8,059 nucleotides of DNA from a virus. Taxonomy: Duplodnaviria > Heunggongvirae > Uroviricota > Caudoviricetes. The notes below the pieces were generated by a model. That model did no database searches, had not been told where the DNA came from, and saw only the letters and a program-made list of their open reading frames with translations. A program made the translations under genes and the position numbers. This document shows, piece by piece, positions 3,904 to 8,059 of the stretch (position 1 is the stretch's first letter; each line of letters opens with the position of its first letter). Where the stretch lies: the IMG/VR virus record IMGVR_UViG_2778261541_000003; one strand, written 5' to 3'.

Positions 3904-4141
3904 GCCGCCCGTCAGAAGAATCCTGCTTTGTCGCTGATGTACTCCGCGTGCGTCTGGATATCACGCAGGCATTTGCTCACACCGACGATGTAGCAGAACA
4001 TGGTGGTCAGCTCCGCCGCCGCGCCCGATACATCGTGCCCGTCGTCCTGTAACTGGTTAAGCAGATTCATCAGCAGTGAGTTCTCCGTCAGGCCGAGAAC
4101 ACCAGACGGCGAGTGAATCAGGCTGCGGTAGCCGGGCTTCA
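3882..4141. repeat. Inverted repeat copy B (partner of 2157-2418)
   Basis: Reverse complement matches copy A; covers the last ~77 codons of the second antirepressor plus its terminator hairpin. Confidence 0.9.
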
Positions 4142-4568
4142 GTGGGGCGCTGTATTCTTTTTTGTCTTCCAGCTTGATCGCCTCCATAATGGCGGGCATG
4201 AAGCCTGACAAGACCTTCTCCACTTTTGTTTCTTGTTGTCTTAAACGTTTCTCGCATTCAATGAAGTAGCGTCGCACCTGGCGACCTTTTTCGTTACGCT
4301 CGACCATCGCCAGCTCTTTGGCTGTATCAAGGGTGAGGTGGTACTCTTTGCGGTTGTGGCCGCCTCTACCAGATGTTTGCTTTCCCAAATTGGAAAGCAA
4401 AATATAGTCTTGATTTTCAATGAATTCGTATTCTGATATGCGATTTGTAATCCATGCTGCAAACACCTTTTTAACACCTAAAAAAGCGTGCAGATCGCGG
4501 GCATTACAAAGTAGGGCTGTTTCGTTAGATATAGTGCCGTTGAATACGGGGATGAGTTGAGCGTTCAT
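3912..4568 (-). CDS. Phage antirepressor, second copy: different N-terminal domain (Bro-N/ORF6N/Rha-like, tentative) fused to the same C-terminal domain as Ant
   Basis: 218-aa ORF; ATG at 4568..4566 with GGAGA SD (rc of 4576-4580). N-terminal part (...[33 protein letters not shown]...[32 protein letters not shown]) resembles phage antirepressor N-terminal families. C-terminal 77 aa are ~97% identical to Ant (1443-2387). Confidence 0.88.
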
Positions 4569-4596: not shown

Positions 4597-4804
4597 CACC
4601 ACCGCTGAGACCAATCAGATGGTGGTGAACTGAACGGAGTTGGTCTTACCGGCCTAAGTGGTACCGGCGTCCTTTCGGACCCCCATTCAGCCCACCATAA
4701 TTCTGGCATGACTGTGCTATACGCATAAAAAAACCACGTCTGGCGTGGTATGCGCCACTTAGTAATCCGGGAGACCAATCCCGGCACTGGATTTTGCCAG
4801 TGCC
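4597..4804 (-). other. Hairpin-rich untranslated leader upstream of the second antirepressor
   Basis: H1 at 4597-4627: CACCACC-g-CTGA-[gaccaa]-TCAG-at-GGTGGTG. H4 at 4767-4784: CCGGGA-[gaccaa]-TCCCGG, same hexaloop. H5 at 4783-4804: GGCACTGG-attttg-CCAGTGCC. No convincing ORF in this ~400 bp (track ORF 4596..4928 rejected). Confidence 0.45.
4726..4749 (-). terminator. Candidate intrinsic terminator or attenuator within the leader (minus strand)
   Basis: Minus-strand RNA ACCACG-CCAGA-CGUGGU followed by UUUUUUU (plus-strand A-run 4727-4733). Sits ~160 nt upstream of the second antirepressor start codon. Confidence 0.45.
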
Positions 4805-4967: not shown

Positions 4968-5696
4968 ATGGAAGTTTTCTGGATAGTTGTTGGTGTGGTT
5001 GCGGTGATTATTTACGTTATCAACCAGAACAAGACTAAGATCTCTGATCGTACGGTCGTTAATCATAACAAAACGATAAAGACCGAAGATGGGGAGATAA
5101 CGATTAATCGTACACAGGTGATAGAACACACCTCTACTCAGTTTCAAAAAACTGGAGGTAATGCGCCTAATATTTCCGCACCTCCTGCTTATGATAGTGC
5201 GGTAATCCAGACATATTATAAACAGCAGGAGTTAGCAAAAGAGAGGCAACTGATTCAGCCAAAGCCGTTTACAGCTGAGCTTCCACCTGGAGTGTCAACG
5301 CGTCCGGCATATCATGGAAGATTCCCTGGTGATGACATATCGTCTCAGTCATCTAAAAAAGCACCTCAGGCAGTATCAGAGCCAGCAAGAATACCTTCTG
5401 TATCGCCGCCAAAAGAAGAATCAGCTAACAGAGTTTCAAGTGGTAGCAAGCAGTGCTTGCGATGCAGAATAAACCTACCATATGAAAAATTCAGGAAATC
5501 GTCAAAAAATCCAGATGGATTGACTAAGTGGTGTGCAAGGTGTCTCGATGGCCCAAAGAATACACGCCATATGAAGTGGTGCCCAATTTGTAATGTCCGC
5601 AGAAAACGAACAAGCTTTTACCCTAATAATCAAAATGCGGATGGCTTAATGGCATGGTGCAAAACGTGCTGGGACGAGCACAAAGCGAAACGATAG
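4968..5696 (+). CDS. Membrane-anchored protein with Pro/Ser-rich linker and C-terminal tandem CxxC-N20-WCxxC (zinc-ribbon-like) motifs; function unknown
   Basis: 242-aa ORF; GAGG 7 nt upstream of ATG. N-terminal TM helix MEVFWIVVGVVAVIIYVI followed by NQNKTK (positive-inside rule suggests a cytoplasmic C-domain). Two Cys motifs: CLRCRINLPYEKFRKSSKNPDGLTKWCARC and CPICNVRRKRTSFYPNNQNADGLMAWCKTC. Terminator follows. Confidence 0.75.
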   Translation: MEVFWIVVGVVAVIIYVINQNKTKISDRTVVNHNKTIKTEDGEITINRTQVIEHTSTQFQKTGGNAPNISAPPAYDSAVIQTYYKQQELAKERQLIQPKPFTAELPPGVSTRPAYHGRFPGDDISSQSSKKAPQAVSEPARIPSVSPPKEESANRVSSGSKQCLRCRINLPYEKFRKSSKNPDGLTKWCARCLDGPKNTRHMKWCPICNVRRKRTSFYPNNQNADGLMAWCKTCWDEHKAKR

Positions 5697-5720
5697 GCCG
5701 CTCTTGCGGCCTTTAAATTT
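5696..5720 (+). terminator. Intrinsic terminator after the Cys-rich membrane protein gene
   Basis: GGCCGC-TCTT-GCGGCC (5696-5711) followed by TTTAAATTT; stem overlaps the stop codon TAG 5694-5696. Confidence 0.6.
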
Positions 5721-5976
5721 ACCGGGTTTGTTTTCGTAATTGTTCGGCACAATAGTCGAGATGTGTTTGCAGATCCCGCATAGACATCTGTGAGCTGGTG
5801 ACGTAGTTAATCAGTGCAGTCAGTTCGGCAAGTGGGCCATCGACATTAAATCCATCCTTATCGAGATCCCGGAGTAATTTCATCAAGTGCGATCCCTCCA
5901 CCAGTGACCTGACGCCTCCCGGCGTGTGAATCCTTTCGGTAAATCCGTCTTCCAGTGGATAGTGATACTGCTGCAT
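5719..5976 (-). CDS. Small stand-alone antirepressor C-terminal-domain protein (85 aa), candidate SOS-inducible mini-antirepressor
   Basis: ORF track 5719..5994 starts at TTG; in-frame ATG at 5976..5974 with GGAGA SD 7 nt upstream. PLEDGFTERIHTPGGVRSLVEGSHLMKLLRDLDKDGFNVDGPLAELTALINYVTSSQMSMRDLQTHLDY aligns over its length with the shared C-terminal domain of the two larger antirepressors ([69 protein letters not shown]). LexA box 20 bp upstream. Confidence 0.8.
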   Translation of the reverse strand: MQQYHYPLEDGFTERIHTPGGVRSLVEGSHLMKLLRDLDKDGFNVDGPLAELTALINYVTSSQMSMRDLQTHLDYCAEQLRKQTR

Positions 5977-5995
5977 CTTATCTTCTCCATGCAAT

Positions 5996-6015
5996 AACTG
6001 TATAAATATACAGTA
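5996..6015. promoter_or_regulatory. LexA (SOS) box
   Basis: AACTGTATAAATATACAGTA at 5996-6015 is CTGT-N8-ACAG with an AT-rich spacer, 18/20 match to the E. coli consensus TACTGTATATATATACAGTA. A TTGATA -35-like hexamer abuts it on the minus-strand upstream side. It lies 20 nt upstream of the 5976 start codon. Confidence 0.8.
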
Positions 6016-6051
6016 TCAAATAATTTGTTTGCTATCCAGCACGTTTTGCGA

Positions 6052-6118
6052 ATCACCTGAAAGGTAATATCTGTTCGTATTTATGGGTTATCTATCCATA
6101 TATGGTTTTTAAGGTAAT
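6052..6118 (+). promoter_or_regulatory. Repeated motifs upstream of the tail-fibre gene (ATCACCTGAAAG plus two AAGGTAAT half-sites)
   Basis: ATCACCTGAAAG-GTAATAT at 6052-6069 (TCACC-tgaaa-GGTAA, imperfect palindrome) and TTTTTAAGGTAATAG at 6106-6120. Same motif family as 3831-3845, 4840-4854 and 4932-4948. Confidence 0.4.
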
Positions 6119-6171
6119 AGAATAACCGGATATGCGGCGCAACGGGTGCTGCTACTATCTGGAGATTTAAC

Positions 6172-7941
6172 ATGACGGTCTCAACCGAAGTTGACCACAA
6201 CGAATACACAGGTAACGGTGTTACAACGGCATTCCCTTATACCTTCAGGATTTTCCAGAAATCTGATTTAGTAGTGCAGGTTGTTGACCTGAACGAGAAC
6301 ATCACAGAGCTGATTCTTGATACTGATTACATAGTCACTGGTGCGGGAGGGTATAACGGCGGCAATGTAATTCTGTCGAAGGCGTTGGCTAACGGTTATC
6401 AGATTTCTATATCAAGAGAGCTACCGGTTACGCAGGATACCGATCTGCGCAACCAGGGTAAGTTCTTCGCTGAGGTGCATGAAGACGCATTCGATAAACT
6501 GACGATGCTGATCCAGCAGGTTCGCAGTTGGTTTGCCTTGGCGCTGCGCAAGCCATCAACCATCGCTAACTGGTACGACGCGCTGGGGAATTACATTCGC
6601 AACCTGCGCGACCCACGAGACCCGCAGGATGCTGCCACTAAAAATTATGTAGACACGATTAGTAACAACAACTATCTGCACACGTTAAGGGTTCCAGAGT
6701 CATTTACGCGGCAACTCCCTCCTGCTGCAGAACGTGCAAATATGATCCATGCATATGATTATGCAGGTGAGTCCATTATGGTCTTGCCTGAGAGCGGTAG
6801 TGCAGCAGATGTTCTGTTATTGCTGGCGCAACCTGACGGGCTTAAGAGGATTGGCACAAAAGTTAATTACGGTATACCGGTTGGATCTACTTTAACCGAT
6901 GGCGTCACTTTTTCTTTTGATAAGGATAAAGGTTGGCTGAGAATTGGTGGTGCCGATCTCCTACCACTTGACGATGAAAAGAACTTCTGGAGAGGCTTGC
7001 CTACACCGAGAAATTCATGGTGTAACCCGGCTCTTATCGGTGATTACTCAGTATCTTTTAACAGAAACGGTGCGTCATTCGCGGTATACGCCACAACTTT
7101 CGGGCATGACTGCGTTACGTACGGCGCGGCATCTATTGCCGGTGGTGCTGGTTCTGCCACTGGGGACCCAGATCATATTACCTCACCAAATGCTGAGGGG
7201 TACTGCTCTTTTGCATTTGGGAAAAATGTCATTGCTCTTGGAGCAAAATCTGCCGCATTCTGTGAAGAAACGGAAGCGCTTTCAAGGGCGGCTTTTGCAA
7301 CAGGTTATTATACACAAGCCAGACCGGGATACACTACAGACCCCGGCGGGGTTGCAAGTGATGGCATTGGTGCGGCGGCCATTGGATATCGAACTCGCGC
7401 GGCAGGAGATGGCTCTTTTGCTGTAGGTAAGAATATTCAGGCTTATGGTGGTTCGATTGCGATCGGGTGCGGCACTGATGAAGATAACCCAGCAGTCAAT
7501 CCACATAAAGACTCAGTGATGCTGTTTGCAAAATCGCTTATTCCAGGTATATCCGTTGTACCTGGTGGCGGTGGGCCGGAGGAACCATCGCGTGTAGGGG
7601 GGCACACAAAATACCCTAAAGAAATAGTGGATGTAGTACTGGAGGGAGGGGGCCGCGCAGCCATCAGAATACCAGGGATAGGAACTGGTACGATCTTGCT
7701 GCAAGGGACAGATAACGACGGCAATGCACTTTCTATCGCGTCGCTTGAATGGACAAGCGGAAACGGAGGTAGTGCTGTTGGTTCGTTGAAAATAAACATG
7801 AACAACGACGCACCATGCATTGAATTTCTGGAAGATGGCAAGGTGGTTTTGAAGAACGTAAAAACGTTTGAGGAGATAAACGGCGCCCCCGCGGGCACCA
7901 TTTATAAGGATGCTTCAAACTTCCTTAAAATTGTTGTTTAA
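6172..7941 (+). CDS. Tail fibre / tail spike protein: T7 gp17-like N-terminal adaptor domain with Gly/Ala-rich repeat-containing C-terminal region
   Basis: 589-aa ORF; GGAGA 7 nt upstream of ATG. N-terminus (EYTGNGVTTAFPYTFRIFQKSDLVVQVVD...YIRNLRDPRDPQDAATKNYVD) resembles the conserved N-terminal domain of T7 gp17-type tail fibres. C-terminal half has repeats such as CSFAFGKNVIALGAKSAAF and GSFAVGKNIQAYGGSIAIG that resemble YadA-head/Hep_Hag-type beta-roll repeats. Confidence 0.88.
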   Translation: MTVSTEVDHNEYTGNGVTTAFPYTFRIFQKSDLVVQVVDLNENITELILDTDYIVTGAGGYNGGNVILSKALANGYQISISRELPVTQDTDLRNQGKFFAEVHEDAFDKLTMLIQQVRSWFALALRKPSTIANWYDALGNYIRNLRDPRDPQDAATKNYVDTISNNNYLHTLRVPESFTRQLPPAAERANMIHAYDYAGESIMVLPESGSAADVLLLLAQPDGLKRIGTKVNYGIPVGSTLTDGVTFSFDKDKGWLRIGGADLLPLDDEKNFWRGLPTPRNSWCNPALIGDYSVSFNRNGASFAVYATTFGHDCVTYGAASIAGGAGSATGDPDHITSPNAEGYCSFAFGKNVIALGAKSAAFCEETEALSRAAFATGYYTQARPGYTTDPGGVASDGIGAAAIGYRTRAAGDGSFAVGKNIQAYGGSIAIGCGTDEDNPAVNPHKDSVMLFAKSLIPGISVVPGGGGPEEPSRVGGHTKYPKEIVDVVLEGGGRAAIRIPGIGTGTILLQGTDNDGNALSIASLEWTSGNGGSAVGSLKINMNNDAPCIEFLEDGKVVLKNVKTFEEINGAPAGTIYKDASNFLKIVV

Positions 7942-8059
7942 GATAAGTCATCACCAAGGAAGGCGGTGAGTAGCGCCTCCGCTATTACTCTGTGACCAAA
8001 ATCAGGTGATGCTGCCAACTTACTGATTTAGTGTATGATGGTGTTTTTGAGGTGCTCCA

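Follow-up and report, generated by a model that had tools for sequence, protein, structure and literature searches.

The open reading frame at 6172..7941 (+ strand) of the 8,059-nucleotide stretch of viral DNA analysed here, which we call the window, raises the question of what kind of protein would join a phage attachment domain to adhesin-like Gly/Ala repeats, and also of what a LexA box is doing upstream of such a structural gene. The reading frame itself, as claimed in the original prediction, is real and intact: it runs from the ATG at 6172 to the stop codon at 7939-7941, encodes 589 amino acid residues, is preceded by a Shine-Dalgarno GGAG (6161..6164, + strand; 7 nt 5' of the ATG) conserved in the intergenic alignment, and matches a 589-residue orthologue (P0001) over its full length with 98% identity. 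The gene occupies the tailspike position in a Uetakevirus (epsilon15/phiV10/TL-2011b-like) prophage of E. coli, and its product is a common type of object, namely a modular receptor-binding protein, with a rare and unstudied binding module. We consider it likely that the protein is the tail fibre with which a temperate podovirus prophage of the epsilon15/phiV10-like kind (Uetakevirus) binds its receptor, that it is made of a conserved adaptor and an exchangeable YadA-like module, and that the LexA box belongs to the neighbouring gene ant. In the fibre protein, no signal peptide, autotransporter anchor, S74 chaperone, or enzyme domain was detected, and the two Pfam matches given by the protein itself are both under the curated cut-offs; the likenesses described below stand at the level of families and profiles only.

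We begin with the N-terminal part, which is divided into a virion-attachment domain of the epsilon15 gp20 type (aa 1-160; 6172..6651, + strand), assigned from matches in PHROG and PDB and from Pfam matches of its relatives, and a neck region (aa 161-228; 6652..6855, + strand). Residues 1-228 are 73-80% identical to the tailspikes of epsilon15, SPC32H, phiV10, and TL-2011b, and 58% identical to a protein of Klebsiella phage BUCT711; the identity to the Uetakevirus tailspikes stops at aa 228, so that the conserved adaptor includes the neck and does not end around residue 150 as had been proposed. From residue 1, the protein is matched by PHROG 1640 and by over 20 further PHROGs of tail fibres or tailspikes with E-values down to 3e-144, and the structure of Dpo31 (28lx) matches aa 1-156 (E 1.8e-25), which confirms that the N-terminus is a conserved attachment domain. 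The KN1 depolymerase (9m4c) is also matched at aa 135-246 (E 1e-10). In the cryo-EM analysis of Dpo31, the N-terminal D1 domain touches the base of the virion (PMC13317679), and by homology the adaptor of the fibre protein would dock on the tail. A search for homologues of the adaptor gave mostly partial proteins at contig ends and hence no usable census of the C-terminal modules.

The adaptor had been called T7 gp17-type, and this holds only as a remote likeness of the family, the type proper being that of epsilon15 gp20 and Uetakevirus. Like the N-terminal domain of T7 gp17, the adaptor occupies the N-terminal place in a podovirus receptor-binding protein, and weak collinear matches are found between aa 12-82 and T7 residues 11-77 and between aa 135-167 and profile positions 123-155. 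Among 27 close relatives, 26 match Phage_T7_tail (PF03906) at E <= 0.1, with the best E-value of 8.9e-10. The fibre protein itself, in contrast, stays under the cut-off of 25.2 bits (the gathering score), giving 15.2 bits with the whole protein and 18.5 bits with aa 1-217, where the matched stretch is only aa 135-167. Direct similarity is also marginal; hhalign of the family against T7 gp17 residues 1-200 gave E 0.031 over 64 aligned columns, and no chain named T7 gp17 was retrieved when the family profile was searched against PDB.

Where, then, does the adaptor give way to the rest of the protein? The comparison with related fibres, which the original prediction had suggested for finding the recombination junction, located it at the linker of aa 210-228 (6799..6855, + strand; SAADVLLLLAQPDGLKRIG); the sequence LLLAQPDGLKRIG also refers to this linker. 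Judged from the points where the alignments start and end, the linker is the likely site of recombination: identity to the Uetakevirus tailspikes ends with its last residue, and similarity to fusions of the P22 type and the TSP1 type begins at aa 210-218. The consensus of the module homologues contains this linker in the form of LRxxLAxxDGxKLxG. The proximal part of the module downstream (aa 229-290; 6856..7041, + strand) is conserved in 77 module homologues and is modelled by AlphaFold with pLDDT of 65-77.

At their N-termini, the 77 homologues of aa 231-589 have either Head_binding or Tail_spike_N, or else no Pfam domain. In a P22-like E. coli prophage, a P22 head-binding domain precedes the module, which is 89% identical there, and the P22-type gene is 91.9% identical in nucleotides over 6916-7993; the surroundings of this fusion (P0002) are P22-like, with arc/mnt-like, ant, tailspike, and integrase genes. 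In lambda-like Enterobacter prophages, the module (about 70% identical) follows a TSP1/gp66-type domain, beside gpJ, and one of these fusions (P0013) is encoded directly 3' of a gpJ-like gene in a lambda-like tail operon. PF09008 is carried by the sister fusions P0002, P0004, and P0028, whereas Pfam found neither PF09008 nor a pectate-lyase-like match in the fibre protein. With the module fused to three different N-terminal adaptors, the chimeric nature of the protein, in which a receptor-binding module is swapped onto a conserved adaptor, is borne out. A single uniform tailspike fold was also considered and is ruled out by the different sets of relatives that different parts of the protein have. 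The module is rare; among 5,426 complete E. coli genomes 11 have it, as do 238 of the 1.84 billion protein clusters, and no isolated phage carrying it was found, its known carriers to date all being prophages. In the databases it is labelled "hypothetical protein".

The repeats lie within this module. The Gly/Ala repeats were predicted to fill the C-terminal two-thirds of the protein; they do exist but span only about a quarter of it (aa ~291-441; 7042..7494, + strand), where composition, motifs, periodicity, and profiles point to approximately nine YadA-head-like repeats of 14 residues. Gly and Ala make up 16% and 19% of aa 291-440 versus 6% and 7.5% of aa 1-160; aa 161-290 are not rich in Gly/Ala, and aa 441-589 are rich in Gly but not in Ala. 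The motif S-[FI]-A-[FVI]-G occurs three times in the fibre protein, and a looser motif, [SA]x[AS]xG, occurs six times between aa 321 and 432 and once more within the N-terminal domain, at aa 71. The spacing of Gly is periodic compared with 1000 shuffles (z = 5.0 at a lag of 7 and z = 2.6 at a lag of 14), and nine units of 14 residues with Gly at the turns can be laid out in this region.

While YadA_head (PF05658) matches the fibre protein itself at a single stretch (aa 398-421) with 17.8-18.7 bits (cut-off 25), the likeness to YadA heads is supported in the family: half of the module family members (32 of 64) match YadA_head at E <= 0.01, the best being 1.8e-6, and the family profile matches the solved heads of BpaC (1.4e-6), YadA (3.7e-4), and CbpF (7.6e-4). 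Furthermore, six distant relatives of aa ~323-451 found by phmmer were scanned, and all have strong YadA_head matches (E 1e-24 to 1e-140). On these profile comparisons, the repeat region is homologous to YadA-head repeats. The AlphaFold monomer of aa 231-589 has an overall pLDDT of 79.9 but only 48-65 across aa ~290-380, so that it does not confirm the putative beta-roll of the repeats. The top match of the module model in BFVD is a protein with an "LbR_YadA-like domain" (E 7e-5 but TM 0.2), and Foldseek against PDB returned weak matches (E >= 0.014, TM ~0.2). The identity of the protein as a trimeric autotransporter was considered and is rejected, since the signal peptide, stalk, and anchor are all absent; among the anchor and stalk families of Pfam and NCBIfam none was found in the fibre protein, the sole match being Ata with 10.6 bits against a cut-off of 2500.

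The protein ends in a beta-rich tip (aa 442-589; 7495..7938, + strand), which is presumed to be the receptor-contact domain. Modelled alone (aa 441-589), the tip gives a confident model with a pLDDT of 90.6. Its structural neighbours are tips of trimeric fibres, namely Bd2133, Bd2439, Bd3182, and T5 pb1, all with TM below 0.5; the best Foldseek match, which is weak, is the tip of Bd2133 (E 2.9e-3, TMq 0.44), and T5 pb1 (4uw7) follows with TMq of 0.38-0.40. The model of the tip thus weakly resembles the fibre tips of Bdellovibrio MAT proteins and T5 pb1. Peptidase_S74, which Pfam did not find in the fibre protein, is present in nine of the 64 module relatives, and those relatives share only aa ~240-467 and have another tip instead. 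In the MAT family, tips with and without S74 likewise interchange (PMC10769870).

Given that proteins at this position in the relatives are enzymes or enzyme-like, the record of epsilon15 citing a tailspike HHpred match for gp20 and the protein of BUCT711 being annotated as a GDSL esterase/lipase, the C-terminal module might instead belong to an unrecognised depolymerase or esterase tailspike that cleaves or deacetylates a surface polysaccharide. The neighbours of the module in the Enterobacter prophages, which include a GDSL lipase and an acyltransferase, also hint at a polysaccharide context. We nonetheless regard this explanation as improbable: no signature of a hydrolase, lyase, or esterase was found in the fibre protein with Pfam, NCBIfam, and PHROGs, the module is short (~360 residues), its repeats are homologous to those of YadA-head adhesins, and the structural neighbours of its tip are non-enzymatic. 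The absence of a recognisable enzyme domain is not in itself a proof of no activity.

We then ask whether the gene of this predicted non-enzymatic fibre is still functional. A megablast search with the window hits prophages like epsilon15, phiV10, and TL-2011b, in which virion genes, an antirepressor region, ant, and the fibre gene are followed by holin and endolysin genes; in E. coli UTME-8, for example, an intact fibre orthologue precedes two holin genes, a GH19 endolysin gene, and the gene of a DUF2514 protein. A scan for tRNA genes gave none. At 8005..8059 (+ strand), 63 nt 3' of the fibre stop codon, the window has the left end of IS1, which starts with GGTGATGCTGCCAACTTACTGAT, the IS1 inverted repeat, and has matches at thousands of sites across E. 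coli genomes. UTME-8 has a holin gene where the window has this IS1 end; the IS1 may part the fibre gene from the lysis cassette, and the prophage may be defective. In line with a reading of the fibre gene as the non-functional relic of a defective prophage, with its IS1 insertion and a mosaic antirepressor region, the annotation of strain UTAK-6 gives the orthologue as a truncated pseudogene, and the gene of the DUF2514 protein is frameshifted there. The gene in the window, however, is of full length like its 589-residue orthologues, to which it is 98% identical, and there are intact copies whose lysis cassette is complete; decay is not to be judged from the window, which covers only part of the prophage. 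Such a relic appears quite improbable to us.

The LexA box upstream does exist as predicted. Its core (CTGTATAAATATACAG) is located at 5998-6013, and CTGTAT-N4-ATACAG was matched in none of 200 shuffles; the whole box (AACTGTATAAATATACAGTA; 5996..6015) was assigned from its motif and alignment to the divergent ant as its operator, rather than to the fibre gene. It lies 20-39 nt upstream of the ATG of ant and 157 nt from that of the fibre gene. The gene ant (5719..5976, - strand), whose ATG at 5976 has a GGAG 8 nt upstream, encodes a small antirepressor of 85 residues that is 86.7% identical to the SPC32H protein registered as "ant: anti-repressor protein". All seven Uetakevirus relatives compared have ant and the tailspike gene in this divergent arrangement, and the CTGT-N8-ACAG core is intact in six of the seven aligned intergenic regions, with one mismatch in Klebsiella phage BUCT711. 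A LexA-controlled Ant is the induction mechanism described for the group in a review (PMC7380047, citing Kim and Ryu 2013); this review and annotations in the records are the support for the mechanism. As in SPC32H, a LexA box is present at the promoter of ant, and the Ant of SPC32H type is Tum-like in function. Judged from its place and alignment, the box belongs to ant, the SOS-induction switch of this phage group, and because it is conserved across the genus, the arrangement is normal rather than an unusual regulation of a late gene, as had been supposed. That the fibre protein is a trimeric-autotransporter-like adhesin of lysogenic conversion, displayed on the bacterial surface under SOS control, would suit the YadA-head-like repeats and the perfect LexA box 157 nt upstream but is extremely improbable, since the N-terminus (MTVSTEVDHNEY) is a virion-attachment domain without a signal peptide, no YadA-anchor or stalk domain is present, and the box abuts ant at a position kept across the genus whatever fibre module follows.

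The intergenic region has two more candidate elements. An imperfect palindrome (ATCACCTGAAAGGTAAT; 6052..6068) is a candidate operator of the phage repressor, as it aligns with ATTACCTGTAAGGTAAT, annotated in the epsilon15 record as a binding site of "repressor (lysogeny)"; AAGGTAATA recurs at 6111-6119. Also, GGTAATAGAAT (6113..6123, + strand), invariant in seven of seven aligned intergenic regions, is a candidate -10 element of a fibre/lysis promoter. No good -35 element was found 16-18 nt upstream of it, and a scan of 5995-6171 for the sigma-70 consensus called no fibre promoter. The fibre gene and, in intact relatives, the lysis cassette next to it are probably transcribed from a promoter of their own in this same region.

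Returning to the receptor-binding tail fibre, we propose the following picture. The protein is probably a homotrimer like its structural relatives; its trimerisation, attachment to the tail, and binding to a receptor are all read from homology. Residues 1-228 would dock the fibre on the tail and aa 229-589 would project outward, with aa 291-441 forming a YadA-head-like beta-roll shaft and aa 442-589 a beta-rich tip that would contact the host surface. Because no catalytic domain is detectable, binding most likely proceeds without degradation of the receptor, unlike that of the beta-helix tailspike enzymes usual at this position, and our best guess for the receptor is a surface polysaccharide such as O-antigen. 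The exchangeable cassette would have been joined to the genus adaptor by recombination in the short conserved linker (aa 210-228), and one cassette would also serve P22-like podovirus and lambda-like siphovirus prophages. A bolder version, which is conceivable but rather unlikely, is that aa ~218-589 are a self-folding, non-enzymatic YadA-like unit that has no need of an S74 chaperone, plugs via one conserved linker of ~19 residues into three unrelated adaptors (that of epsilon15, the P22 head-binding domain, and TSP1/gp66 on a lambda-like siphovirus), is so far seen only in prophages, and perhaps binds a receptor distinct from the polysaccharides that ordinary tailspikes cleave.

Receptor-binding proteins set the host range of phages, which shifts mainly through modular exchange of the distal regions of these proteins. 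The present locus gives a clear example of such an exchange, with a mapped junction and one uncharacterised module in two podovirus lineages and one siphovirus lineage, spanning E. coli and Enterobacter. If binding were shown, the module could serve as a compact targeting unit without an enzyme, and if it were indeed a self-folding cassette, it would amount to a naturally portable adhesin cartridge, of use in phage retargeting. The annotation is also corrected in that the LexA box marks the switch of prophage induction (ant) and not SOS control of a structural gene.

Among the known systems close to the fibre protein are the Uetakevirus tailspikes (epsilon15 gp20, SPC32H Tsp, phiV10 gp25, and TL-2011b gp48), with which it shares aa 1-228 at 73-80% identity, a gene that is divergent from ant and precedes the lysis genes, and the same intergenic region with the LexA box. 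Past aa 228, on the other hand, there is no similarity; those tailspikes have 697-1070 residues and other receptor-binding parts, while the fibre protein has 589 residues with YadA-like repeats. The heads of YadA (1p9h), BpaC (7o23), and CbpF (9u93) have the same kind of Gly/Ala-rich 14-residue repeats (the SxAxG...AxG type), but in our case the repeats sit inside a phage virion protein, and unlike trimeric autotransporter adhesins, this protein lacks the signal peptide, the coiled-coil stalk, and the C-terminal membrane anchor. With the fibres composed of YadA_head and Peptidase_S74 (those of phages, Bdellovibrio MAT, and T5 pb1), it is connected through distant relatives that share aa ~240-467 and then continue into S74, whereas the fibre protein has no S74 and ends in the beta-rich tip of ~150 residues. 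The fusions of the P22 head-binding type and the CBA120 TSP1/G7C gp66 type, furthermore, have one and the same C-terminal module, whose N-terminal partner is PF09008 in a P22-like prophage and, in a siphovirus prophage resembling lambda, PF18668. Classical module-exchange tailspikes are typically right-handed beta-helix enzymes; unlike in those exchanges across tail types, the part shared in the present case is a YadA-like fibre.

The open reading frame at 6172-7941 on the plus strand (ATG at 6172, stop codon at 7939-7941, GGAG 7 nt upstream) lies exactly where it was originally predicted and encodes a fibre of 589 aa. We regard it as a real gene because it has a 98%-identical 589-aa orthologue, P0001, and an intact annotated copy in E. 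coli UTME-8 (WP_064559440, labelled “hypothetical protein”). The fibre is a modular receptor-binding protein of known kind, in which a genus-typical adaptor is joined, at a junction that could be mapped, to a rare and unstudied YadA-like cassette common to P22-like and lambda-like prophages. On structure, the original prediction was for the most part correct; it has to be amended as to how far the repeats extend and as to the T7 label, and its inference on regulation was wrong.

In terms of the adaptor, aa 1-228 are 73-80% identical to the tailspikes of epsilon15, SPC32H, phiV10, and TL-2011b, all members of the genus Uetakevirus, and 58% identical to the tailspike of Klebsiella phage BUCT711; nothing beyond aa 228 was alignable with these five tailspikes. 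More than 20 PHROG tail-fibre/tailspike families match the fibre from residue 1, with ends varying from aa 155 to 276. Also, aa 1-156 match Dpo31 (E 1.8e-25), the solved tailspike of a marine podovirus, of which the N-terminal beta-sandwich is placed at the virion base with the contact seen by cryo-EM (PMC13317679). The adaptor furthermore has a second, neck-like part, since aa 135-246 match the capsule depolymerase 9m4c. This N-terminus had been called T7-gp17-type. On the fibre, the Pfam model Phage_T7_tail aligned at aa 135-167 only and, with 15.2-18.5 bits, stayed below its cut-off of 25.2. Among 27 close relatives, 26 matched the model at E <= 0.1 (best 8.9e-10), and hhalign paired aa 12-82 with residues 11-77 of T7 gp17 (E 0.031). 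The likeness to T7 gp17 is remote and acceptable as a statement on a distant superfamily, but the proper assignment, as judged from sequence, is an epsilon15 gp20-type adaptor.

When homologues of the C-terminal module were searched with aa 231-589, 77 were found, and their full-length alignment gave four groups, the domains of which were confirmed by Pfam scans of the aligned set: namely, 578-589-aa proteins with the same adaptor (66-98% identity, aligned from aa 1), 488-aa proteins with the P22 Head_binding domain (PF09008; 70-89%, from aa 218, their residue 118), Enterobacter proteins of ~500 aa with Tail_spike_N (PF18668; about 70%, from aa 210-218), and distant proteins with various N-terminal parts, many with a terminal Peptidase_S74 (41-53%, aa ~240-467 only). 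The gene for the E. coli homologue P0002 is surrounded by a P22-like order of arc/mnt-like genes, ant, tailspike gene, and integrase, and that for P0013 of Enterobacter lies immediately behind a gpJ-like gene of a lambda-like tail operon; genomic context hence confirms the presence of the module in three different virion types. In lambda-like Enterobacter prophages, the module gene is followed by opposite-strand genes for a GDSL lipase and an Acyl_transf_3 protein (10527-12712 in one copy), a pair that suggests surface-polysaccharide modification and is possibly a clue to the receptor class.

Similarity to the Uetakevirus tailspikes stops at aa 228 and that to the other fusions starts at aa 210-218; because the two limits meet there, we place the junction in the common linker SAADVLLLLAQPDGLKRIG (aa 210-228; family consensus LRxxLAxxDGxKLxG). 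Comparison with related tailspikes has therefore both located the junction and supported the proposal that a receptor-binding module was swapped onto a conserved adaptor. In nucleotide comparisons, the DNA up to nt 6656 is 90.6% identical to TL-2011b, and nt 6916-7993 are 91.9% identical to a P22-type gene in a prophage. Nucleotides 7971-7993, 3' of the fibre gene, match the same P22-like prophage, and identity to epsilon15-like relatives stops at 7970; judging from these matches, the exchanged segment may reach beyond the fibre stop codon.

The module is present in 11 of 5,426 complete E. coli genomes and in 238 clusters (E <= 1e-3) among 1.84 billion. It was found in none of 50,697 records of isolated phages, where the best match, from Acinetobacter phage TRS1, covered 58% of the query at 37% identity.

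The regulation of the fibre gene had been considered unusual due to a LexA box. This box, AACTGTATAAATATACAGTA (5996-6015), agrees with the LexA consensus TACTG(TA)5CAGTA at 18 of 20 positions and is not a chance occurrence (0/200 shuffles). The fibre ATG is 157 nt downstream of the box, which lies only 20-39 nt in front of the ATG (5976) of a divergent 85-aa gene (5719-5976, minus strand) with its own GGAG. The product of this gene shares 86.7% identity with “ant: anti-repressor protein” of Salmonella phage SPC32H, in which ant is likewise divergent from tsp. In the ant/tailspike regions aligned from seven members of Uetakevirus, the CTGT-N8-ACAG core is intact in six, with one mismatch in BUCT711, and the box is conserved while the distal parts of the tailspikes differ among all these phages. 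In such Salmonella prophages, furthermore, according to a review, LexA cleavage permits synthesis of an Ant by which the repressor is inactivated (PMC7380047, citing Kim and Ryu 2013). Given its proximity to the ant ATG, this conservation, and this mechanism, we assign the box as the operator of ant; the LexA/ant/tailspike arrangement is usual in the genus and not peculiar to the fibre gene.

The operator-like motifs noticed in the same intergenic region are real, and those within 6052-6123 are conserved across the seven genomes as candidate binding sites. In the epsilon15 record, the counterpart by alignment of the imperfect palindrome ATCACCTGAAAGGTAAT (6052-6068) carries the annotation “repressor (lysogeny)”. 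The motif AAGGTAATA occurs in two copies spaced 50 nt apart (one at 6111-6119), and the invariant GGTAATAGAAT (6113-6123) may serve as the -10 region of a rightward promoter. If so, the LexA box, more than 100 nt upstream, would not occlude that promoter.

This small Ant is not the only one: apparently, the window contains three antirepressor modules, each with a different type of control, that by LexA included. Rfam detected, all on the minus strand, a sar RNA (1374-1441) just upstream of a P22_AR_N-type Ant gene (1443-2387, plus) and a C4 antisense RNA and an isrK RNA (4618-4702 and 4727-4803) upstream of an AntA-type Ant gene (3912-4568, minus). All three antirepressors share a C-terminal domain of ~78 residues, which may be the repressor-binding part joined to different N-terminal domains; the two large proteins hardly differ across their last 80 residues, and the small Ant matches the shared domain with 41% identity (E 6e-17). 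A 242-aa ORF (4968-5696, plus), Cys-rich in its C-terminal half with several CxxC pairs, gave a weak, sub-threshold Stc1 match, and its TL-2011b equivalent bears no annotation other than “similar to hypothetical protein”. Positions 1-1000, with a G+C content of 32-33% against 42-52% elsewhere in the window, look like acquired cargo; a 185-aa ORF without Pfam match (51-608, minus) adjoins an Arc-family gene (651-1112, minus) there.

By megablast, the relatives of the window are E. coli prophages akin to TL-2011b and phiV10. In that of strain UTAK-6, genes for capsid and internal virion proteins precede the matching region, which terminates with holin, endolysin, and chromosomal yfgI. The window holds the variable antirepressor region of a Uetakevirus-like prophage followed by a gene at the tailspike position. 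Its last 55 nt (8005-8059), which we take to be the left end of an IS1 element, start 63 nt past the fibre stop codon, at the site of the holin gene in intact relatives; the IS1 may have separated the prophage from its own lysis cassette.

As to the nature of the module, the Gly/Ala repeat region claimed for two-thirds of the protein does exist but amounts to about a quarter, because the composition differs along the fibre: Gly and Ala are 6% and 7.5% in aa 1-160, 16% and 19% in aa 291-440, and 15% and 7% in aa 441-589. There are three copies of the proposed motif S-[FI]-A-[FVI]-G, and a looser [SA]x[AS]xG is present six times between aa 321 and 432 and once at aa 71. Gly is periodic in aa 290-441 (lag 7, z = 5.0; lag 14, z = 2.6; 1000 shuffles), and the region can be arranged as nine 14-residue units. 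Pfam YadA_head remained sub-threshold on the fibre itself (17.8 bits); the suggested YadA-head likeness holds at the family level, where 32 of 64 relatives match YadA_head (best E 1.8e-6) and the family profile matches the solved heads of BpaC (1.4e-6), YadA (3.7e-4), and CbpF (7.6e-4). When 1.84 billion representatives were searched exhaustively with phmmer, aa ~323-451 proved to have distant relatives, which are long proteins and match in 5-13 stretches each; all six that were scanned had strong YadA_head matches (E 1e-24 to 1e-140), and four of them also had Peptidase_S74. By these profile matches, the repeat region is homologous to YadA-head repeats.

In a monomer model of aa 231-589, pLDDT was poor (48-65) over aa ~290-380 and good past aa 380, and the top viral structure match was an “LbR_YadA-like domain” protein (E 7e-5). 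Modelled by itself, the tip (aa 441-589) came out as an all-beta domain (pLDDT 90.6). Its best PDB neighbours were three fibre tips from Bdellovibrio, namely Bd2133 (E 2.9e-3, TMq 0.44), Bd2439, and Bd3182, together with the T5 L-shaped fibre pb1 (TMq 0.38-0.40); these neighbours suggest, though not conclusively, a trimeric fibre tip. No enzyme signature was found in the fibre with Pfam, PHROGs, and NCBIfam, nor was a signal peptide, stalk, or anchor with Pfam and NCBIfam. YadA homologues in phages have already been noted (PMC3728262). Since the six distant relatives scanned are YadA_head proteins, four of them with Peptidase_S74, the nearest wider family of the fibre is not the cell-surface autotransporters but the phage/MAT-type YadA-repeat fibres; in the Bdellovibrio MAT family, tips with and without S74 likewise replace one another (PMC10769870).
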